Origin: Rhizodiscina lignyota | Taxonomy: Eukaryota | DNA: 64,000 nucleotides | NCBI GenBank assembly: GCA_010015805.1 | Contig: ML978138.1 | Location: forward strand, 310,001-374,000 | Direction: 5' to 3' | Shown: piece by piece, positions 15,464 through 41,836 of the stretch | Position numbering within the stretch: position 1 is the first letter of the stretch | How the letters are laid out: every line of letters starts with the position of its first letter | Position numbers and translations under genes: made by a program | The notes under the pieces: model-generated | What the model was told of the DNA's origin: nothing | Seen by the model: only the letters and a program-made list of their open reading frames with translations | The model's database searches: none

Positions 15464-17606
15464 ATGGCTCCGCTGGGCATTGAGCTATCCGGAGCTCCAG
15501 ATGAGCTCATCGGCACGCCAGAGGCCAAAGCCTCCGCCGTGCAGGTGATGCAGATCGACCTCACCAAGTCAGTGCTGGATGAGCTTCTCCAGTGTACTCG
15601 AAACGGGAAGCCGCCGCACATTCTGTTTGGAAGGAATCCTGTGCGTACCCGAGACACCCTCTCCCACATCATGAGAGACATAGAGGCGTGGTGCACGGAC
15701 TCTGAGCTGAAGACTGACTGAAGACTGACAGAGACTTGAATACGGCGACAAAACCAGAATTCTCGAACACTCTTCAGAGAACTTTCGACATGAACTATAT
15801 CGCTATGAGGAAGGAGAGGAGCAGGAATGGGCGTTCGGCGGCCTCATCAACCATTCGCTGCAGTTGCAGAAGCTGCGAGAGTCGTCCGCGAATTCGGACA
15901 AGGCGTTGGAGAATTTGAAGAGCAGTCTCGCGCACATTCAGGAGCAGAGAGACGCCGAAAAGTACGTTCGATTGTTCTGCTACCGACATTCTTCGTCATC
16001 TCCGCAAATATAGGTCCACATATGCTAACACTGTTGTCACAATAGAACCATCATAGAAACGACATCGCAGGCACCGCCATCAAGGAATAACAAACTGCCC
16101 AAATCAAAAGGCCATCTTCGAACCCCCTCGCTTCTCGCCAATCTCCAGAAATCCTCGTTGCCGAACAGTCCATCCCTCTCCGCACTAAGCTCACCAGCAC
16201 TTGCACCTGCTCCCACATCAATCCCCGAGAGCGAAGCCAAGGCCATGTTTAACGCACTCCGGGCCCCCATCGTTCACCTCCTAGCCGTCAAGCCCGCATC
16301 CCTCGATTCGATTTGCAAGAAGACCAGAGGCAGACTCCAGGACGTAACCAAGGTCATCGAACAGACGGGCAAGAAGGTCAATTCGGACTCCGGCAGCGCC
16401 ACACTCTACGAATTGCACGACAGGTCCTACAAGTTTCTAGATGTCTACAAATTCCGATACAGCGTGGAGGAGCGAGAGACCGCTGTCAAGAATGCCGTCA
16501 GGGCGTTCGACCGCATGAGAGTCAGCAGGGAGGACAATCTGTGGCAGATGCTTCTGCCACAAGAAGAGCGCGGCAAGGGCAAGGTGCTGTCACGTCTGGG
16601 TGATCTCAGTCAAGGACCGCGGAACACGCCGATGATGACGGCGCAGAAGATTGATCGGAAGACGGGCCTGTTGAAGAAGACGGAAGTCAAGAAGGAGCGA
16701 AAGTCCGCGAAGCACGATGACGAGGAGGATAAGGCGCACAAGAGCGAGGGGGGCTCCAAGCTAGCATCGCAGGAGAAGAAAGAGAGGAAGCCAAGAGAAC
16801 CGAGCACGAAGGTACCAAAGTCCAAGGAACCGCGAATGGGCCGCAAGGCAGAACGAAAAGCGGAACTCGAAGCGAGACCGGCAAAGGCCTCCAAAACCAA
16901 CAACGCGCAGCGGCCAGCTCCCCCGGCAAGCAAACCCAAGAATCCATCTCCGCTGAGTAGCTCACCACCGGTCAATGCCTCCGACTTCGAAGACTCCCAC
17001 CCAGTTCACAAGCGCCTACAAGCTGCCGCCTCGCCGGCGAAGAAGCGCAAGGCCGACGAAGCTTCCGACTTGGAAGACTCCCACCTCGCCCCCAAGCGCC
17101 TGCAACAAGCTGCAGCTTCACCCGCGAAGACTGCAGTCTCAGTCTCTCCCGCGAAGAAGCGCAAGGCCGAGGAAGGCGACACGCCTAACACGTCCACGCC
17201 ACCCATCAAAGCTCGAAAACTACACCCTTCTACAGCCCCAATATCCAAGACCGCCGCCTCGACTCCCAACGGCATAACACCCACGTCTACGCCTCGCGTT
17301 AACGGACACTCCCACGGCGCAGTGAAGCCCGCGATCACGAACGGAATGGCAGCTACGACCACGAACGGTGTCCCCGCAACGAGCTCGAGCAGCCAAAGCC
17401 CGAGTCCCCCGCTGACGCTCAGCTGGCGCCAGCAGCTCGATCTGGCACAGAAGTTCAAGCGCTACTATGAGAGGTATGAGAAGCTGTGGCACCAGCTGGC
17501 GGATAGTCCGACCCCACCGAGTGAGCAGGCGAGGGAGGAGCTGATGAGGATGCATGAGCGGTTGGGCGAGATGAAGAGGGAGATTGCTGGCGGCAGAGTG
17601 AGGTGA
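15464..17606 (+). CDS. RNA polymerase II elongation factor ELL-like protein (spliced)
   Basis: N-terminal VMQIDLTKSVLDELL; central ALRAPIVHLLAVKP...LDVYKFRY...AVRAFDRMR; C-terminal occludin/ELL-type LAQKFKRYYERYEKLW...LMRMHERLGEMKREI; introns near 15641 and 15962. Confidence 0.75.
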
Positions 17607-19002
17607 ATGGAGGATAGCGTCAGGATAGCGTCCAGGAGAAATGATGCCTGGAGATACGTGCATGGGTTTCGTCGACATGGAGACATTGGAAGCTCAAAAA
17701 TCGGCGGTGACCGAGTAACGGTGTTCAGACACGAGGATGAAGGGCATGATAATACCGCGGCGACGGTGTACTTCAAGAGGCGACGCAAAATCATCTCGAT
17801 GATGCGTTGGCTGTTGGATAGGTACAGAAGCTTCCAAAATAAGAGAATATTTCTTTCAAGAACGGTGCCATTGTGCATGCAGGGTTTTAGGATTGTTCCA
17901 CGGATACTGATGCCTTCTCGGAACGCTTCCAAACTACTACGAAGACAGTGATATTATATACACCTCAGCGCAGGTTAGGGAGGCTCCAGGTTCGTCGTGT
18001 TCGCAATATTTGGCCGTTAGCTCGCCATCGCGAGGAGTAGTCAGCGAGCGACTCTGCGATCTGGGCTTGCATTTATTATGTCTTCTCTCACCGACCCTCC
18101 TCGACATGCGTTTGTTCTCTTGCGTTTGTTCTCCTTTGCGCTGCTCAGTACAAAGTTGAGATTTCATTTAAGTACTCGTTCGCCTTCTATTCGTCCCACA
18201 TGAGATGATTGTCTTTCGCAGTTCGTATCTCCGCAGTTAGCAAGAGAAGAGGACGCACCGATCACTGACCAGGTGGTCAGAGCATTATCTGAAGAGACAC
18301 GCAGACTCTATGAAAGAGAATGGACTCGGTGCACTTCTCCTCTTTTTCCCACCTATCTCATTGCACTTCTGCATATCGCTGATTCGGTTGACCGGCTGCA
18401 TAGTAATGGACTTGGCGGCTGAATGGACCTGGCTGGGAACTGGAGCGGCCCCGTCATCACAGCCGAAGCCGAAAGTTATCGTTCATTCTGGCAGAGCGCC
18501 CCCTCACTAGGACCATGCTCGTATATACATGAGCAATCTACCGGAATGGAAAGGCCTACCCCAGATTCCCCTTTCGCATGTGTAGCCAAGTCGCCTCTCC
18601 GTACGAAGCCTCCACAAGCTTTGCCTTCCGTGGTGCGCCGGACGCCACCAAAGCCATACACGCTGAGCAACGCGTTAAAATTCTTTTACTCTCAGCCTCG
18701 AGGTAAATGTCTCGGTTCCTGCTCCTCAAATTCAGCCCATCCTGAGCAATGAACTATTACGGATTGGTAGGAGCTGCGTATTGGTAGGAAAAATGGCCTT
18801 GCGGAGCAGTACGAGCTGTGGAGCAATATGGACTGTAGGACAGGACGATATGTTCTCTTTGTGGCTACTGTTTCGTACAGTTGCTGGAGAGCATTGCCTC
18901 CGCTTGATACGGCAGAAGGAGCAGAACTCATGGAGCAGGCACAGTGGCAAACTTCATGTTAGGTAGAGACGACTTTCAAGTGGTGGAATCATTCTCTGTT
19001 GC

Positions 19003-19080
19003 TATTCCTCGTCTCAAAGATATTCTCCATCTCAAAGGAAGATTGCTCGACTCAAAGAGATATTCCTCGCCTCAAAGAGA
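19003..19080 (+). repeat. Four degenerate tandem units of 18-20 bp with an invariant CTCAAAG core, upstream of a TATA box
   Basis: tattcctcgtctcaaaga / tattctccatctcaaaggaa / gattgctcgactcaaagaga / tattcctcgcctcaaagaga. Confidence 0.85.
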
Positions 19081-19123
19081 CTCCCGATTGTATGCTAATT
19101 AGCCGTGAAGACACGGCCTGGGG

Positions 19124-19131
19124 TATATAAA
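19124..19131 (+). promoter_or_regulatory. TATA box of the peptide precursor gene
   Basis: TATATAAA about 120 bp upstream of the ATG at 19247. Confidence 0.65.
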
Positions 19132-19246
19132 CAGACGTCGGTTTGGCACCAGCTAGATCCACCAAGCTGTCAATCACAGTTAATTCCTCGTCTATCAGAA
19201 CAGAATTCCGAATTTGTTCAGACTTTTAAGTCACAAATACATAACA

Positions 19247-19435
19247 ATGAAGAGCTTCTTTGTCGCCGCTATCACCCTCGCCTTCGCGCTTACCATCTCG
19301 GCCGCGCCAGCAGAGAAGGTCGCACGCAACATCCACTACTTTAATAGACGTCAGGCCTGCGGTTGTGACTCTTTCGGCCAGTTTTGCTGCGCGGGAGGAG
19401 ACCAGACGTTTTGCTACGACTCTGATCTTTGCTAA
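19247..19435 (+). CDS. Small secreted Cys-rich prepropeptide (62 aa), candidate RiPP precursor
   Basis: MKSFFVAAITLAFALTISA signal peptide, pro-region APAEKVARNIHYFNRR ending in dibasic RR, core QACGCDSFGQFCCAGGDQTFCYDSDLC; ACAATG start context; TATA box upstream. Confidence 0.85.
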   Translation: MKSFFVAAITLAFALTISAAPAEKVARNIHYFNRRQACGCDSFGQFCCAGGDQTFCYDSDLC

Positions 19436-20213
19436 GGTAACCGGAATAGGGCGTGTCATCACGTACTCATGCTAACAGCACGATAGTAGCTAAGCAGCCT
19501 TATGAGGCTCGGTTTTGTCTGTGGAAGCATAGGGTAGCGGAGAGATGGCGGTGAAGGGAGCCAGTAACCAGATGCTTTACGACACTCTTTGATCAATTCC
19601 AAATGGAGAGGGGGAATCGAAGGTGGCGGAGGGGTGGTAGATAGTACTGGAGGAAGGAGTCAAAAATCACAGATTGAGCTTTCTACTTGCGCGGTGCCTA
19701 TCCTTTCCAGACGTTGGTGTGCAAATGGAGACACCGATGGTTTGCATGATCAGCGATAATAATGGAACGGGCCGGCGGGGGCTTACATACTTGATGCAAG
19801 TGATATAAATCCCTGCACGCACAGCAAGGGAGAAGTCGATGCGTTCCTTCGTCAGCTTCTGTACACTCTCAGGATCCTGCCAGAGCCATTGCCTTACTGA
19901 AATGACTTTCCGAAGCCTTTTAGATATTCCATTAAGCATGTTTGGGGCTCGCACAATGTACCACTGCGATGTTTTTCCGCCTTCTACCCAAAGGAGTTCG
20001 TTTAGAGCTGGCCTCACATCTCCTTGCGCGGTGTTGCGCGGTGCCGCACCCATCCTCTGCTTATGATTTTCCACGTATGGCGATACAGCGGCTAAAGAGA
20101 ATGAGTGAGACATCAATAGTGGAAGTCACTTCACTAAGTAAAGTACATGTTCATAAGTTTTCTCATGTGAACTATTACAATACATTCTTTGCGACTGAGA
20201 CGTCTACAGCGTC

Positions 20214-21172
20214 ATGGGCGGAGACTCGAAAAAATACAGCAAAATTCCCGAAGATGAAGAAGATCAGAATGCTCGATCTCACGACAACCAAGGTCTGATA
20301 TTCTGGCCCGCATGCTCTGCATTTCTGTTCGGACTGTGCTTGCTCCTGTTATTCTTTTTGCAACGAAGCGCCTCCTCTACATGCGTAGTCAGAGACGGAT
20401 GTCGACAGGAGGCAGCTAAGACCGACTTCGGTTTGCAATCCACAATAGCGCGGGCGATGGCAGTGTGCTAATACTGAGAAGAAGCAACAGCCTCTGCAAT
20501 TGAATACCACGAAGTCAAGTTTGGGGGGTTGGTGTTTGCGGACGGGCTGCTTGAGCTAAAGAGTGGAAGCCAAGGTAGTGGTCCATATGTTGGAGCTTCC
20601 TTTGACGAAGTCGACAAGGCTTGGGATGATATACTGAAAGGTTAGCGCCCAGTGCGTCTACATTGTCAACCCCTCCGCTCAGCATTGGAGTAGAACGGTG
20701 GTTCAATTTGACCGCAAGCGAGAAGCAAGAGGTGTTTGGAGACAACTCTGACAGATACCTTGACTTCATTCAGTCAGTATTCAACCATCCCGTGGCATGA
20801 ACGGTGCATAATATTTGGTAGACTGGATGCCTTTCACCTCCTACACTGTATCAACCAACTCCGAAAACACCTCGATGCAGACCACTACTTCCCGGACGGA
20901 CAGACCAATGGTCGTGCTCATCTCGGTATGATCTCCGTCGAGAAGGGTGTGATAGTATCTAACTGATTCCAGATCACTGCCTTGATGTGCTTCGAGAGTC
21001 CGTGATGTGTCACAGTGACCTTACCCCGATTCCATATGTATTCTTTGAGAACAGCCCTCTTTACTACAGCGATTCGATTCGGACGCATACTTGCCGGAAC
21101 TTCGAGAAAATACGCGATTGGATGGTCGAGGAGAGGAGCCCGTTTGAGATTGAGTTTTTCAAACTTGAATAG
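20214..21172 (+). CDS. DUF3328 / UstYa-like oxidase, about 5 exons
   Basis: N-terminal TM anchor, AIEYHEVKF, EVDKAWDDI, two HxxHC motifs (FHLLHCINQLRK; AHLDHCLDVLRESVMCHSDLT, split by intron 20926..20972) and HTCRNFEKIRDW. Confidence 0.93.
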
Positions 21173-21329
21173 GCTGCCGCCAGGAAAGAAGGGTGCGATA
21201 CCTAGAGCGAACGTGTCCTGAGAAGAAGTATATTGTCGATGCACGGATCCGGTTTTCGAGGAGTCGGCGCGCCTCAAGTGTATGAGACATTACACTGCTG
21301 GCTGCTCTGTATGGGGTGTTCTCAAGCAG

Positions 21330-24300
21330 TCAAGCAGGAATGGTTTTGGAGAGGAAACATTGAATGCATAAGCTTCGACAACGGTGCACTTTGTTGAAGA
21401 AAGAGGTAGTATTGCTTACATGAACCTCTCCTCCAGGTTCGATCTGCTGTAGCAAACGGGATATCACACGGGATATGAAATACTGAATTTCACTGAAATT
21501 TGCGCGTTCATTCAAGAAAGGAGATTGATACACCCGAAAACTACTGTTTCGTCCACAGCGCCATATTGCCCTTATTATTCCAGATTGCGTCTGAGCTGAA
21601 ATGAAAGTCTGTTCAAGCGAGAATGATTCGCCGAGATTCCGTAGTAGCATTTTCCACGCCGCGATTATTACCTCTTCCGCCTCTCCTGTTCGCTCCTCTT
21701 TGAGATCTGGGCGGCTCCTCCACATTCGTGATTTTCAGGTAGTTCGTCAAGATGAGATCATCTTCCGCCTCTTCACCTTCTTCCGCCAAAATCATGTATT
21801 GCCCAGCAAGCACCGCGACGTCGCCCGTTCGAACTTGGTCGTCGCGAAGTGCCTCATCGACATGCTCCAGTGGAGAAGCAAAGTATTTGACGTCCTGATT
21901 CTGAAGAGAGATTTCAATCACCGAATCAGAGCGCCAGGTTACGGTCGACACCACTGATGTTATAGCTTTGAAGTCCAAACGTGTCGCTCCCTTACTCGAT
22001 GCTTTGTACTCGTACCAGACACTGGGCACAAGGAATGTGGAGCCAATCTGCTGAATCACCGACGCGATCGGCTCGTCTGAGGCAGTTGGGTCTTGCTGGA
22101 TTTGTTGCCGCATTCTCTCGCTACTCTGGACCTTTTGATCGACTTCGTGCAGTTTCTCCTCTACGTGTTGTAGATTTTGGATTCTGACGCCCGAGAAGTT
22201 GTCCGAGATGCGTTCACGGTAATAATTTACCACACCCTGAACTTCGCGATCGTCTTGTGCCATAATGGATACAGCATCGCTGAGTGTAATCTTACGTCCT
22301 TCGACTTTGTACGCGACAGCCAGAGTCTGTTGGTCAAGACCTGCTGTGTGTTTAGCCAATCGTCCAGAGGTGCGGCACTCTTTCAGCATGCTGATCTCAT
22401 GGGGCCGCCCTCTTTTCGAAAACGCACTGATTGTTCTTCTTCGTCGGATCGGTGCCGAAACGAAGCTGTTGATTTGCTTAATGACAGGGTTAATGAGCTT
22501 GACTGCATCACGCGATGCATCATTGAGGTGAATCTCTTGAATCTCCAAGTCACAGAAATGGTCACGGGAATCGGGGTGAGCTTCTTTGATGGTGTATACC
22601 CCTGCTACTTTGTTAGTCGCACCCACTATTTCCGTCAGAGTCTAACATACCTGGAACGAGGCAAACGATGCGCTCATAATCCGCAGCCCGAATAATGTAT
22701 TTTTCGTCGTTCGTCAGAACTACAGTGATTTCGCCATCGTCGTCTTCCCTGTCGATCATCTGGTCTATTCTAGGTACGTCGTTGAATGTACGCAACGGAC
22801 CAGAGTACTGAAGCCTCGTGAACATCTCCGACGATTTGATGCCAGCTTCAGGCCATTTTACGACCCACGACATCTGGCTCCGACCCAACTAGCTCACGGT
22901 TCCCGGTAGGATGTAATCCAGAGGAAGCATATGGGCAATGAATGCATCCCAACATTTACTAAAGTCAAACTCGTTAGAGTCAACTCGTGGCCATCCTTCG
23001 GGGACAGGAATCATGGACATCATGAAGACCTTGGGGTTGATGGACAGCAATGGGAGCACTTTCAAGAAAAGAAGTTCGACACTGCTGCGATCGGCTTTGA
23101 ATTTATACGTTGACTCCAAGAATAATCGGATGTCGCTCAAGTCGTCGTCGTTGAGAAGCGAAAGCAATAGTGTGAGCATCTGGAGGAATCGGGGACGAAT
23201 GAACTTTTGAGCTGTTCCGTCAACGTCAAGTGTGTTGTAGTATGCAGCGCTCAGTGATATCATTTCCTGAATGCCTTTGCTGGTCGTCAGTGTTTTGAAC
23301 TGCCGCCCTTGCTTTATCCCGTAACGCGTATTTCGGGAGTTGATGATGTAACTGCGGGTGGACAGGCGAAACAACAAAGGACTGCGGTGGAAAAGTCGGC
23401 GAACATCTTCCATCATGCTTTCGAGGAAGGCTTTGGTGTCGTCCAGACTCAGTCTGGGCCACCACGCTGAATCAATATCCTGTAGCTGACTATTAGATTC
23501 ATCAAAGACAGCCCTTCGACTTCGATCAAGGTGCTCTCAAGGTCAAATTCGTCTCGATGTTTGCAAAGATCCTGAACCACTTTGACTTGTTCGCTATCGA
23601 TGGTCACTCCGGCGACCGGCCGGCTACGAGGCGTCAAAGCCAAGCGGCTAAGACGATGCATAGCCTTCTCTGCAATTTCGGCGGTCTTGTCGTTCTGGAT
23701 CACAGAGAGGTCTGGGGTTACCTCGAACTCAGAAAGCAGAGAGCCTGCAGTATTCACCCTCCATACGGAGTCCATCTGGTCTGGATCTCTATTCGTCATC
23801 ATATTCGTTTGCTCCAGTCGGTTGACAGTTGGTCTGTCCGCACCTGGAAGAAAAGACAGTCCGACTTTCAAGATTGGGGCATTTTCAAGGACTTCTCGGA
23901 CAGGCTGGCCACCAGCATAGCTTCTCCTGAAGCCCATGTCCGCAGCCCTTTCGATGCGCTTGATCATCAAATCCGTATCTTCAATGGTTATCATCTCCTT
24001 TTGAATCCCATCCATGACATCAAGAGCAGCCTGCATTGTCCGGTGTCTCTGATCTGCATTGGTCGAAACTAGTGCTAACTCATCAGAGCCGCTGCTGATA
24101 CTGCTATCGTGAGGCCTAGGGTGAGCCGGCTGTATGTGGACGGGTTCAATGCCATTGATTGACAGTGATCCAGCTGCAACATCAAAGCCATCCTCATCAT
24201 GGTTTCGAGCGTTGAGCCTCGAAGGCTCAGAAAGTATCTCATCGTGTGATAGGATCGGCTGGTGATTGGAAGGAAGAGGTCGTCTAGGACCGATACCACT

Positions 24301-24612
24301 GACAGGTCTCTGCTCACTCTCATGGCAGCTTGCACTTTACGGTACCAAGGCGCTAGTCTCCGGCGAGCGAACGAGACTTGTAACGGAGCCCCTTTCCTAT
24401 AACATCGAGAAGTAAATCTTCTGATGCAGGCTAGGCAAGCTACGCCCTGACAACCTCGAATACAACTCCACCGACGCGAGGAAGCTTCTTAGTACTGCCG
24501 GGGCCAACTTTGATCGCGTGGCTTCGCAGACTGTACGCTCGCTGGAAACCAGCTCCTTCGTATAAATGATGGCCTTTACCCGTAGCATTTTCAGCCTTGG
24601 CACTCCTGTCAA
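21330..24612 (-). pseudogene. Large orphan gene of about 1000 codons, spliced and/or degenerate
   Basis: Chain of same-strand ORFs; one clear intron near 22650-22601 (GTATGT..GACTAAC..AG), a probable intron 22897..22808, two in-frame stops near 24337-24399 and frame changes near 23500 and 21725. Confidence 0.5.
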
Positions 24613-25839: not shown

Positions 25840-26642
25840 ATGTTCGCGCGAACACGAACCTTGTTAGCGCAGGTATCAGACAGATTCACCCCGCTGATAA
25901 TGGCCAGCCTCAATGGTATGTCCTGCGGCCTCTTACCTTCCGATATCCAAATGCTCTCAAATTAGATGGGTTTGGGATGCTCGAATGCTCGATGGGACTT
26001 GGAGACATCGGTTGAAGATACAATTGCTAATCTCTCGACCCAGTCTTCAGGAGGCCGTTGACAATGCACTCCACAGAGCCAATGACGGGGTACATGCGTA
26101 CGGGATACTGCGAAGTTCCGGCTAGCGATTTTGGCAATCATTCCGTCGCTGGTATGTGCACATTCTCTCTTACCTTCTTCTTGGAGTCCATTGCTATGAT
26201 CCGGACCAAATTGTACTTGTTCATGTCGCTTTGCGTTTGGCCACGAGTTTCGAGAGGAACTAACAAAGCCACAGGTATCATGACTAAGGAGTTTCTCGAC
26301 TTTAGTGCATCCCAGGGCAATGATCTCCGCACTGTGGGCCTGACCGAAGGTTGTAGGTGGTGTCTCTGCGCGTCAAGGTGGAGGGACGCATTTCTGGCGA
26401 GGAGGGATGATAACGATAAGATTGTCCCGAAGTCAGTTCGATCACCATGATTCGGACGAACATTTACATGCAATGAAATGGCTGATGTGGTATACAGGGT
26501 TGTCCTGAGCGCCACGAATGAGAAAGCTCTTAGATCAGTTGACCTGGAGGACTTGAGAAAGTTTGCTGTCGATCAAGGCGCCGCCAATGGAGTCGATGGT
26601 GTGAATGGTATCAACGGTATCAACGGTGTGAATGGACATTGA
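25840..26642 (+). CDS. DUF2237 family protein, 4 exons
   Basis: SLNVFRRPLTMHSTEPMTGYMRTGYC...GNHSVAG...FLDFSASQGNDLRTVGLTEGCRWCLCASRW...VPKVVLSATNEKAL; in-frame ATGs at 25840 and 25900. Confidence 0.88.
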
Positions 26643-37397: not shown

Positions 37398-37832
37398 GTT
37401 AAGGAGAGACTATGTAAGATGATATCCAGCTTCTCTCAATCTAATCCCAGCCCATGCATCGAACGGATCTAGAATCGTCTCCTCAAAGTCTTGAGCTTCA
37501 AGTCTCCCTTGATTTGCTTATGTAACATCATACAAGTGCAGAAGCGAATCTAACATTCACCCACCACTCTTTAATAGTAATAGCGAATACTCGAAGGATT
37601 CTGCAAGTGATGTCACTCTTTGGGCGTCAACTTCATTGTTTCCAGGCTTCACCGGTTTGGTTCGCTCGGTCTTGCCAAACCATTACACAATATTTACCGC
37701 AAACACGACGTGACAACACCTTCCCATCGTCACTGTCCGCGCTTAGAATAATTCTTCGTTGGCCTTTTACCCACTCCACCTTCTTTGTTTCTTTCAAAGC
37801 GAATTCATATAGCTTTCAACAACAGCGTGGCC

Positions 37833-39425
37833 ATGGCCGAAACGAACGGAGCCAACGGCTCACAGACAACTTCCCTCGCACAGCCAAATCACGACAGTCC
37901 GCCGAACCACGATGAGCAGCCAAACAGTCACGAGCAGCAAAATGATCACGGCAGCATGAAGGACCTCGAGGATATGGACAAGGACGAGCTTAACGCGGAC
38001 ATCGCACGATCTATGGAGCCTCTTAAAGGGCCTGGAGTAGAGATCGATACGCATGCCTACGATGATGCCGACGAGAGGAATCTCAACGCAGAAATCGTGC
38101 GACTTCAGGCGCGACTTAAAGAGCTGGATGGAGAATCTACTGCTACAGAAATAGAACTTGTATCACAACCAGACCTGTCCAATGAAGAGCAGCTGGAGCA
38201 GCCGAACCATGCTCAACAGCGAAATCGTGACGATGCAGATTCTGACCAAGAATCCACTTCTACGGTAGTGTACGGCCAGGAACCTTACGCAACTTATGAA
38301 GGCAAAGTCCTCAAACTCTGTCACACCCTGTGGCCCGACATTCCCGCAGACCACGTAAAGGCCGAGCGACTGAAGGGCGGAGGCTACAATCGCATCATTG
38401 GGATATCACAGCAGAGTACTTCAACCGGTGAGACTGAGGATCTCATATTCCGCATTGCTCGTTTCGACTACTTCGACATGGAAACTGATATTGCCACGAT
38501 CGGCCTTGTGATGCGGTCTACGTCAATTCCAGTTCCAGACATAATATCCCACGACCCATCTGTGGACAACATTCTGGGAGCACCTTATAGTATACAGCGT
38601 CGACTCCCAGGAAGAAACCTTGACGATGCCTGGCCTACCCTCTCGCACAAGCAGAGAATACTTGTAACGGAACAAGTCTGTCAGATCCTTACTGAACTAC
38701 AAAGCAAACCGTACCCTTGCTCGGGCAAACTGGATCCAGCGTCTGTTATGGGGAACAACTCTGCCTTGATCTCATTTATGAAACTCCACGCTGGAGAATC
38801 CGACGGTCCACGGGAAATTTTGCCTTCTGAGCCCGATCAGAAATACTCCGAATTCCTTACAATGCAGTTCAAACGCTGGAAAAATACAGACATCCTTCTC
38901 TGCCCAACAAATCCTGCGGACTACTTTGATGAGTTGACGGCAGTTGTCGAGGAAATGGAATCCTCAGGTCTTTTCGACGATGCTGGATACTACCTCTGTC
39001 ATTTGGACTTTCAGCCCCGGAATATTCTTGTTTCAACGGCAGATGGTGATCAAGCCGCCATCACTGGCGTTCTTGACTGGGATCTTGCGGTTTTCGCCCC
39101 GAATTTTATGGGCTGTATGCCTCCCGAGTGGATTTGGCGGTGGGAGCACCTTGAAGACCACAACGAGAACGACGATAGCGGAAGCCACTTGGTATCATCA
39201 GATCCAGAAGCACAGGAACTAAAACACATATTCGAGAATGGTGTTAGCACAAAGTACTTGGCATTTGCTTTCCGTGACGAATATCGCTTGGCCCGGAAAG
39301 TCTGCCGAATTGCCATGGAAGGCATGCGCTCTGACGACACTTGGAAGGGATATGACGAGATTCTAAAGTTGTGGCCTCAACTGTCAGACCAACTGGGCGT
39401 GCCGTGCAATGAAAGCGGGAGATAG
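37833..39425 (+). CDS. APH / phosphotransferase family (kinase-like) protein, copy 1
   Basis: LKGGGYNRIIGI, IPVPDIISHD, YSIQRRLPG, catalytic-type LCHLDFQPRNILV, ITGVLDWD; ATG at 37833. Confidence 0.9.
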   Translation: MAETNGANGSQTTSLAQPNHDSPPNHDEQPNSHEQQNDHGSMKDLEDMDKDELNADIARSMEPLKGPGVEIDTHAYDDADERNLNAEIVRLQARLKELDGESTATEIELVSQPDLSNEEQLEQPNHAQQRNRDDADSDQESTSTVVYGQEPYATYEGKVLKLCHTLWPDIPADHVKAERLKGGGYNRIIGISQQSTSTGETEDLIFRIARFDYFDMETDIATIGLVMRSTSIPVPDIISHDPSVDNILGAPYSIQRRLPGRNLDDAWPTLSHKQRILVTEQVCQILTELQSKPYPCSGKLDPASVMGNNSALISFMKLHAGESDGPREILPSEPDQKYSEFLTMQFKRWKNTDILLCPTNPADYFDELTAVVEEMESSGLFDDAGYYLCHLDFQPRNILVSTADGDQAAITGVLDWDLAVFAPNFMGCMPPEWIWRWEHLEDHNENDDSGSHLVSSDPEAQELKHIFENGVSTKYLAFAFRDEYRLARKVCRIAMEGMRSDDTWKGYDEILKLWPQLSDQLGVPCNESGR

Positions 39426-39673
39426 GGACACTTGTGCAGTTGTGAGTTACACTGTCAGTCCACGAGACTCCAGCCTATGGCGCTGAAGCAGGCTCCGCGC
39501 CTACAGTTTTATTGAGGCTGCATGTATACTATTCTTTTCCTTCTGTATAAATATCTCATTTCCAGTACCTTTCATTCAGTTAGAGTACTCGGGCCAAAGG
39601 TTAAATTCCAATCCAGGAATCCCTCGTCGATGAAACACTTTGAAGGTTAAATATCGAGTCCTCGAAGCTCAAA

Positions 39674-39979
39674 ATGGTTACTACACACCACTGTCCCATC
39701 AAGCGTAATTGCCGCAGGGAGGCCATACCCAAGGCACACTGCACGATCCATCAGAGAGTGTGCCAGATTCATGTGATTCCTCACCTGAAGGCCGAGACGT
39801 GCCGATCATGCAAGAGGGAAAGTGAGAAGAAGAAGAGGGAGGCCGAAGAGAAGAAGAAGAAGGATGCAGGAAAGAAGTTCACCAATACGAAGAAGGTGGA
39901 AGTGTACCACTCTTCACTCCAGGACCCAGGTAACAGCACCTTAGACCTAATCAAGGATGGACCGCGATACGAAGTGTAA
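39674..39979 (+). CDS. Small Cys/His-rich putative zinc-binding protein with Lys-rich tail, copy 1
   Basis: HHCPIKRNCR..CTIHQRVCQIH...HLKAETCRSC; AAAATG context; TATAAATA near 39545; homologous to 42457..42639. Confidence 0.75.
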   Translation: MVTTHHCPIKRNCRREAIPKAHCTIHQRVCQIHVIPHLKAETCRSCKRESEKKKREAEEKKKKDAGKKFTNTKKVEVYHSSLQDPGNSTLDLIKDGPRYEV

Positions 39980-40432
39980 TGCTTCACAACCAGTCAGTCT
40001 CGAGCAGCACAGTGTTTAGGAAATGAAGAACCTGATTCATTATTGTTCAATTCTTTGAACTTCTCAGCAGAATGCCTGTGCGTTTTATGCATTTTGTTTA
40101 TTACGAAATATCTCGCAGAATCTCTTTGTTCCATGAATGTCTGCGCAGCAAGCAATCCGATCAATGCTCTTTGTCGCTTTACAATGTTTGGCTCTTTGTG
40201 CTTTAAACCGCATCTCTGTTAAACAGTGCCCAGCGCACGATGCAACAGTTATAATACCGCTGACGCGATTTTTCGTGATATTCACGAATTAAGCAACAAC
40301 AACTTATCAACATCAACACCCCATCACCCTCTCTTCACTACCCAACCATACCCTATTTCTTTCATTGAGCATTCAAATCTACCGGACCAGCGCATCTGAT
40401 TATCTGATTTCATTCCACGTCTCACAGTCACA

Positions 40433-41836
40433 ATGATAGAAGACGTCCCAATGGCAGAGGACACTCCACATATTGTACCGGAAGACACAGAACATCTCAA
40501 TTGTCAGGCAGACGCATCATCAGAAGCTGGATCTGACGGCAGGTCTGATTCAGGCTCGGATGAAGTCTCGGAGTCATCGACAATAGTCTACGAGCATGAA
40601 TCTTTCGAAACATTCCAACATCGCGTGAAGCGTTTCTGCAGTACGCAATGGCCGAACGCCACAGAGGACTGTTTTGAAATCTCGCGACTCGATGGTGGAG
40701 CCTTCAACCGTGTCATCGGTATCAAGTACACGAATCCCGTCACGGAGCAGAGCGAGGAGTATGTCCTTCGGATTCCGCGATTCGAGTCCGCCCCGCTAGA
40801 ATACGAAGTTGCCGACTTCGTGTTTGCTGCTAAATCAACAGGACTTCCTGTGCCGGAAGTCATTGCATACGACTTGACAGAAAACAATTCATTGAAGACA
40901 CGGTACAGCATCCAGCGCCGTATCCCCGGCCAGTCCCTGTATGAGGTATACCCGACGCTCAACCCGTCGCAGAAGACATCTGTGGCAAAGGCGATGGCCC
41001 AGGTAATTACCAAACTGCAGTCAAAGGTTTACTCCAGATTCGGGCGTATCGATCCTACGCCAGTGCTGGCAGGAACTGAGAGCGACCTCAAAAAAGTGTT
41101 TCGATTTGAAGTCCCGGCGCGCCAATCCTGGAATGCTGGGGTCGACGAGCGAATTCCATCCGCGCCTCAGGCCGTGTTTGAGCTGCTGCTGGACCTATTT
41201 GAGCGCTGGAAGGCGTACGACATCAGTATCTGCCCCGTTGACGATTGCGAGCGACTCAACAAGCTGATCGATATGACAAAGCAAATGGAGGAGCTTGGCA
41301 TGTTCAAAGATCAACCCGTGGCCTTCTGCCATCTGGACTTGGAGCCGCGGAACATACTGGTGACCGTCCTGAATGACACTGAAGTCGTCATTGAGGGCAT
41401 CCTCGACTGGGACTCAGCCGTCTTCGCGCCTCGTTTCATGGCGTGCAAGGTCCCGTTCTGGCTTTGGCGTTGGGATGATGAGGATGACGATACCGATGAG
41501 CGAAATGCGAACAAGCCGTTCATAGACGAGCTCGATTTGGAGATAAAGCGGACTTTTGAGGGTGCAATCGGTCAGCGATTTCTCTACCTCGCCTATCCTC
41601 GGAAGTTTCAAATTGCCCGCAAGCTGTTCATTCTTGCGACGGAGGGCATGAGGAGCACTGGAGCTCTAAACGAGGCGGACGAGCTCATCGAAGAGTGGTC
41701 TGAGCTCCACATCGAACTCCTCAATCCTGTTAAGGAGATGCTCATATCGAAAGATGGCTTTCCCAGTCTGGGTGCGTTCTTGAAGAGGAAACGCCAGATT
41801 CTGTTGCAGGAAATAACTCGATGTTCAATTATGTAG
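40433..41836 (+). CDS. APH / phosphotransferase family (kinase-like) protein, copy 2
   Basis: LDGGAFNRVIGI, LPVPEVIAYD, YSIQRRIPG, FCHLDLEPRNILV, IEGILDWD; colinear with copy 1. Confidence 0.9.
   Translation: MIEDVPMAEDTPHIVPEDTEHLNCQADASSEAGSDGRSDSGSDEVSESSTIVYEHESFETFQHRVKRFCSTQWPNATEDCFEISRLDGGAFNRVIGIKYTNPVTEQSEEYVLRIPRFESAPLEYEVADFVFAAKSTGLPVPEVIAYDLTENNSLKTRYSIQRRIPGQSLYEVYPTLNPSQKTSVAKAMAQVITKLQSKVYSRFGRIDPTPVLAGTESDLKKVFRFEVPARQSWNAGVDERIPSAPQAVFELLLDLFERWKAYDISICPVDDCERLNKLIDMTKQMEELGMFKDQPVAFCHLDLEPRNILVTVLNDTEVVIEGILDWDSAVFAPRFMACKVPFWLWRWDDEDDDTDERNANKPFIDELDLEIKRTFEGAIGQRFLYLAYPRKFQIARKLFILATEGMRSTGALNEADELIEEWSELHIELLNPVKEMLISKDGFPSLGAFLKRKRQILLQEITRCSIM

Follow-up and report, generated by a model that had tools for sequence, protein, structure and literature searches.

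The systems described so far that most resemble the locus studied here are the dikaritins (ustiloxin, phomopsin, asperipin-2a, victorin and epichloecyclin), in which a precursor carrying a signal peptide and a Kex2-type site is likewise accompanied by a neighboring DUF3328/UstYa gene. A Tyr residue in the putative core is common to both, and asperipin-2a also uses one DUF3328 protein (PMC7329392). The architecture of the precursors is different. Dikaritin precursors include repeated short linear cores located between Kex2 sites, whereas the candidate precursor ends in a single 27-residue core that has six Cys. Furthermore, unlike dikaritin clusters, the locus has no tyrosinase, methyltransferase, transporter or reductase gene nearby, although such genes are not universal in dikaritins. 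Judged by the repeated cores, the locus falls outside the dikaritin clusters, although it may function in the same way.

Binuclear copper, O2-dependent activity and a homodimeric state are reported as properties of the DUF3328 family (PMC12435403). One of its members, CctR, is described as a copper enzyme with a membrane anchor and a luminal location, and acts on a non-ribosomal cyclic peptide (PMC12435403). CctR and other DUF3328 copper enzymes share an N-terminal anchor, two HxxHC motifs and a conserved C-terminal Cys (PMC12435403) with the oxidase encoded in the window, the whole 64-kb stretch of DNA that was analyzed. The window oxidase differs from CctR in that it belongs to a separate, narrow clade and has a deletion of about 8 residues before the first motif. 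Polyketide and non-ribosomal pathways also employ DUF3328 proteins, and there are reports of conserved DUF3328 clusters in which no precursor is recognizable (PMC12048977). Many DUF3328 genes have no repeat precursor, an absence that the same survey calls a mystery and for which it suggests single cores (PMC12048977).

Disulfide-bridged fungal RiPPs are few (PMC10840396). One of them, acalitide, resembles the candidate in being a disulfide peptide of about 30 residues made from a single-core fungal precursor (81 aa), but it is closed head to tail by the peptidase AcaB and has two disulfides and a hydrophobic core; the pathway as described in that report names no DUF3328 protein (PMC10840396). 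An acalitide-type peptidase was not recognized at 4-34 kb of the window, and could lie elsewhere. The signal-pro-RR-core layout and the C-C-CC-C-C order of the precursor are also those of knottin-like Avr9, PAF-like and defensin-like proteins (PMC9632046). The candidate departs from such small secreted Cys-rich proteins by a first Cys gap of one residue, an acidic core lacking Lys and Arg, and a predicted beta-meander with no significant match among solved structures. Small secreted Cys-rich proteins of this kind are not known to require an oxidase. The literature searched, in which few subscription journals were covered, yielded neither a disulfide-folded substrate of the DUF3328 family nor a pair formed by a DUF3328 enzyme and a disulfide-rich single-core peptide.

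The initial annotation had proposed a 62-aa precursor with a signal peptide, an RR site and a six-Cys core, and all these elements were confirmed in the ORF at positions 19247-19435 (+). All features of the peptide and oxidase genes given below are on the same strand. The predicted signal peptide (residues 1-19, positions 19247-19303) was recognized by a hydrophobicity filter, and cleavage would occur after A19. It is followed by a 16-residue pro-segment (19304-19351) that contains His-Tyr-Phe and ends in R34-R35, a putative Kex2 site at which the precursor may be cleaved, and by the 27-residue acidic core Q36-C62 with the stop codon (19352-19435). The precursor has a single RR and a single core, and repeat searches of the ORF found no internal repeats. 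A TATA box (19124-19129) lies 123 nt ahead of the start codon, which has an A at -3, and a putative intron-like element of 42 nt with a GT donor, a CTAAC branch and an AG is located in the 3′ UTR, 2 nt past the stop codon (19437-19478). The GC3 of the ORF was 0.68, compared with 0.63 for Rpb1 and 0.71 for the ELL-like gene. When the window was searched with a crude strict filter (signal peptide, [KR]R and six or more Cys, even in number), 1 ORF was retained as opposed to none in 100 Markov-shuffled windows, a rarity that is overstated because the filter was composed after the ORF had been seen; a relaxed filter retained 2 ORFs against a shuffled mean of 0.99. The TATA box, start context, codon use and filter result make the ORF look like a gene. 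A contig from run X1 was identical to the window across 17500-23000, and gives no independent confirmation because it probably is the window's own source. A short way ahead of the TATA box is an array of three to four imperfect direct repeats of 20-28 nt (19003-19088, +; period 20, 4.0 copies, score 79), which is possibly regulatory and may include transcription-factor sites.

The core begins with Q36 at nucleotide 19352, and its Cys residues, at 38, 40, 47, 48, 56 and 62, have the spacing C-x-C-x6-CC-x7-C-x5-C, both as originally claimed. The reported three Phe and one Tyr were also correct, and there are four acidic residues and no Lys or Arg residues. The charge computed for the core was near -4.3, and the acidic character would speak against a classical cationic antifungal peptide. 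The computed mass of the 27-mer was 2836.93 Da with three disulfides and 2819.90 Da with pyroglutamate. The C-C-CC-C-C order is knottin-like, and a single-sequence AlphaFold2 model of residues 32-62 predicted a meander of three antiparallel strands (best pLDDT 84.3, pTM 0.44; the four other models, 58.5-78.2). The best matches of this model among solved structures (Foldseek E 2.4; Z 3.1, rmsd 1.9 over 31 residues) were unrelated large proteins. The full-length precursor was modeled with low confidence (pLDDT 60.7), with a helix over residues 3-35, and its structural matches were generic helices only.

A word search of 5.8 billion proteins found no homologue of the peptide, its exact sequence was missing from a 15-billion-protein collection, and no relatives were present in the PDB sequences, Pfam and prokaryote contigs searched. 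The ESM Atlas also gave no relative, its top row (0.81, an ascomycete cluster) being under the lead threshold. Comparison of the peptide with 1.84 billion representatives by phmmer produced two matches (E 4e-5 and 7e-5) in proteins of 499 and 2830 aa. They were rejected as relatives: both proteins are long and share a short Cys stretch only, and the 499-aa one, which was inspected, is unrelated and repetitive. A likeness between the peptide and the Penicillium bubble protein received no support from the PDB sequence and fold searches, an absence that does not exclude it.

The ATG of the oxidase gene is located 778 nt past the peptide ORF on the same strand, close to the distance of about 780 bp first reported. 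The gene was modeled as five exons separated by four GT-AG introns of 47-60 nt and encodes 249 aa. Exon 1 (20214-20430) specifies a cytosolic N-terminus and, by inspection, a hydrophobic anchor at about residues 27-49; the alignment of the homologue P0042 with the oxidase begins at residue 8. Exon 2 occupies 20491-20640 and exon 3 occupies 20694-20772, the latter with junction peptides that match annotated homologues. Exon 4 (20822-20925) includes the first HxxHC motif (H154, H157, C158) and H182, while exon 5 (20973-21172) includes H185, C186, C196, C224 and the stop codon, so that intron 4 interrupts the second motif. In the spliced model both motifs, at residues 154-158 and 182-186, are intact, as had been claimed. 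Seven placements of intron 3 leave the frame open; six of them fail to give the junction found in the homologues and were discarded, and one reproduces that of the Coniochaeta sp. 2T2.1 and Trichoderma proteins, whose annotation is independent. The two frames bearing exons 5 and 4 matched Pfam UstYa (PF11807) with 58.5 and 26.8 bits, respectively, against a cut-off of 25. All four His and the invariant or nearly invariant Cys of a 36-sequence alignment are kept in the oxidase, and C196 and C224 fall in columns invariant in 36 of 36 homologues. Judged by its score, two HxxHC motifs, N-terminal anchor and C-terminal Cys, the oxidase is a DUF3328/UstYa member, and by analogy with CctR as described it would be a membrane-anchored, luminal binuclear-copper enzyme using O2 (PMC12435403). 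Both the peptide gene and the oxidase gene are taken to be real, and both are probably unannotated.

The DNA between the two genes contains a second TATA at 19804, followed by a 75-aa ORF (19839-20066, +), an arrangement that may represent the oxidase promoter with an upstream ORF. We do not take this ORF for a second precursor because it did not pass the signal-peptide filter and matched no Pfam family. A 12-nt GC-rich word present in three copies upstream of the oxidase (19687-19698 and 20024-20045) is absent from the peptide promoter.

The phylogenetic tree comprised 37 rows, after leaving out proteins under 150 aa and two unrelated matches. The window oxidase and nine Coniochaeta, Trichoderma and Logan proteins formed one group with support 100/100; their identity to the window oxidase was 46-61%, as opposed to 28-40% for the other tree rows, and the branch of the window oxidase itself was flagged as long. 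The relatives in the well-annotated Trichoderma and Coniochaeta genomes are full-length or nearly so, the T. reesei orthologue being TRIREDRAFT_112133 (EGR44516.1), and the clade proteins listed all lack a functional name. Other oxidases of the clade are KAB5528940.1, KAB5562719.1, PTB71266.1, PTB62103.1, EHK24158.1, KAL7815104.1 and KAL7952135.1. A stretch of about 8 residues immediately ahead of the first HxxHC is missing in all clade members and present in some form in the six outgroup rows shown; speculatively, this deletion could suit a bulkier substrate. Published T. reesei supplements were consulted for ids 112131-112135 as a gene-order look-up, and 112134 alone was found. This id, the next number after that of the orthologue, is filed there under lipid metabolism and detoxification (PMC5425790, supplements). 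In the Trichoderma models P0005, P0006, P0041 and P0043 part of one HxxHC is missing exactly at the positions of intron 3 or 4, gaps that are probably mis-spliced annotations and not real losses.

The clade search identified three loci in metagenome contigs (L001, L002 and L003), and none in prokaryote or viral contigs. Introns 3 and 4 are at the same codons in L001, L002 and the window gene. L001, a member of the clade, includes only about 540 nt upstream of the oxidase gene, where 778 nt would be needed, and no similar peptide ORF is found therein. An 11-nt identity between this upstream DNA and the window intergenic DNA (E 0.33) was treated as chance. In the L001 orthologue (543-1549), the donor of intron 2 is GC-like, and the reading frame appears to be shifted both near the 5′ end and at intron 2; this orthologue is possibly a pseudogene or an assembly error. 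L002, which is Trichoderma-like, starts inside the oxidase gene, and its downstream neighbor is FAD-enzyme-like by weak matches; this gene differs from that of the window, which indicates that the oxidase does not belong to a large cluster of fixed composition. L003 falls outside the clade (42%), and none of its listed ORFs is similar to the peptide.

The surroundings of the two genes were scanned with Pfam (E 0.001) using the 120 stop-to-stop frames that have 80 aa or more and are completely contained in 4-34 kb, a scan in which short exons would be missed. None of the 120 matched a tyrosinase, methyltransferase, transporter, peptidase, NRPS or PKS, in agreement with the initial statement that no transporter or tailoring gene is recognizable nearby. 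The families recognized were a ubiquitin-conjugating enzyme, DUF2237, a HAD hydrolase, a BTB protein, a winged-helix domain and the oxidase. Thrice-repeated 5-mers are confined to the Rpb1 tail, and no repeat-core precursor was found in the window, where an intron-split one could be missed. A second DUF3328 gene was not detected in the window by tblastn. Upstream, the neighbor is an ELL-like gene ending at 17606, a label assigned by reading, for which Pfam gave a weak winged-helix match only. Downstream and convergent are three successive long frames without a family match (23449-24336, 22889-23536 and 21613-22641, the last two being separated by a short piece) that together span 21613-24400 (-). 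They have the appearance of a single long gene interrupted by a frameshift and an in-frame stop; a candidate intron at 22650-22605 may account for one of the breaks. No match was found in Pfam, PDB or viral contigs, and the stretch might represent an orphan gene in decay or an endogenized virus-like sequence.

Two readings of the peptide-oxidase adjacency are about equally likely. The likelihoods attached to these and to the two other readings considered below are our estimates and were not computed. The first is the two-gene system of the initial annotation, a cassette in which the folded six-Cys core is oxidized by the neighboring DUF3328 enzyme, which we regard as a serious possibility that falls somewhat short of an even chance. 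The components of that proposal stood, since both genes look real and intact and are immediate, co-oriented neighbors, with no rival repeat precursor found in the window; the pairing itself, which we find plausible and cheaply testable, is inferred from one locus. The precursor would enter the ER by its signal peptide and form three disulfides. In the Golgi, Kex2 would cut after R34-R35 and release a 27-residue acidic mini-protein, the N-terminal Gln of which may cyclize to pyroglutamate. The DUF3328 oxidase, membrane-anchored and luminal by family analogy, would then oxidize the 27-mer during secretion, and the likeliest modification would affect Tyr57 or one of the three Phe, by hydroxylation or cross-linking. 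The role of the peptide as substrate is, like its expression, Kex2 cleavage and disulfides, what we infer from the locus. The pairing is favored by the observation that the 64 kb contain no other such peptide ORF and no other DUF3328 gene, and that the two are adjacent and co-oriented, 778 nt apart. As judged by their sequences, both products would enter the secretory pathway, and the precursor would travel through the lumen, where CctR is located. With neither a repeat precursor nor a tailoring gene nearby, the six-Cys peptide is the only local candidate substrate. The reported mean distance between DUF3328 genes and their repeat precursors is 3.09 genes (PMC7329392). Against the pairing, the adjacency is known from a single locus in one genome, and a homologue of the peptide was undetected, yet relatives of the oxidase 46-61% identical to it exist in well-annotated genomes. 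This last point is a weak counter-argument because short genes are often unannotated.

The second reading, which comes close to an even chance, is that the peptide is an ordinary member of the small secreted Cys-rich proteins, its pro-domain being removed by Kex2, and lies by accident beside an oxidase whose substrate is encoded elsewhere. The peptide would be complete once its disulfides form, and the oxidase would act on the product of a distant repeat precursor or on a non-ribosomal metabolite. Both gene types gather in variable regions, and the long broken ORF of unknown kind that flanks the locus fits a region of this type. Small secreted Cys-rich proteins are numerous in such fungi, with 231 reported in M. 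fijiensis (PMC5006380) and knottin-, PAF- and defensin-like families described in V. inaequalis (PMC9632046). The core is predicted to fold compactly, which would make an enzyme unnecessary, and members of the oxidase clade were detected in at least three lineages, in contrast to the peptide, for which no relative was detected. The promoters of the two genes share no word beyond chance; the longest had 11 nt, a length reached by 53 of 289 control pairs. In addition, scanning many genomes selects such adjacencies. Accidental proximity is less easily reconciled with the fact that the 64 kb contain a single peptide ORF of this kind and a single DUF3328 gene, side by side and in the same orientation, and with the lack of any other local substrate or cluster among those looked for.

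The two genes could also be a true pair in which the substrate is the His-Tyr-Phe pro-segment (residues 28-33), cyclized like a dikaritin core, the Cys part being a folded follower or a second product. We consider this unlikely. Tyr is enriched in the cores of DUF3328-linked precursors (65.6% vs. 38.2%; PMC7329392), and the segment would be unstructured after signal cleavage and has the length of a dikaritin core. Nonetheless, the stretch between R27 and R34-R35, offered as the alternative substrate in the initial annotation, is the weaker candidate because R27 follows Ala and not Lys or Arg, leaving no canonical Kex2 site at its N-terminus. Kex2 is specific for dibasic sites. The signal-pro-RR-Cys core arrangement, which is the usual layout of a discarded pro-domain, also speaks against the pro-segment, and no peptidase was recognized nearby. 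It is very improbable that the small ORF lacks expression as a gene or that the locus is decaying: the exact peptide is missing from the large protein collection and the L001 orthologue appears frameshifted, an indication that the clade decays in places, but the TATA box, start context, codon use, signal peptide, RR, six Cys and 3′ UTR intron-like element coincide, and the frame of the oxidase is intact.

Beyond the two-gene cassette at this locus, the narrow DUF3328 clade of this fungus, Trichoderma and Coniochaeta might be dedicated to single-core, disulfide-folded mini-proteins and oxidize the pre-folded scaffold, an extension that we put forward more tentatively than the cassette itself. 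If true, there would be a two-gene class of fungal RiPPs invisible to repeat-based mining, and some seemingly ordinary small secreted Cys-rich proteins would carry unseen modifications made by copper enzymes. Should the pairing hold, short Cys-rich genes without repeats must be included in genome mining, and copper enzymes capable of modifying folded disulfide peptides would make useful tools; should it fail, the locus would add one more unannotated small secreted protein. The locus offers a concrete and cheap test, with a 27-residue product of defined masses and one enzyme that has a T. reesei orthologue.

Other genes were observed farther downstream in the window. An intron-containing DUF2237 gene, whose family is described as conserved in bacteria, is located at 26031-26640 (+). 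An amidase gene at 35.5-37.4 kb is followed by two tandem genes for APH-family phosphotransferases (37752-41836, +).
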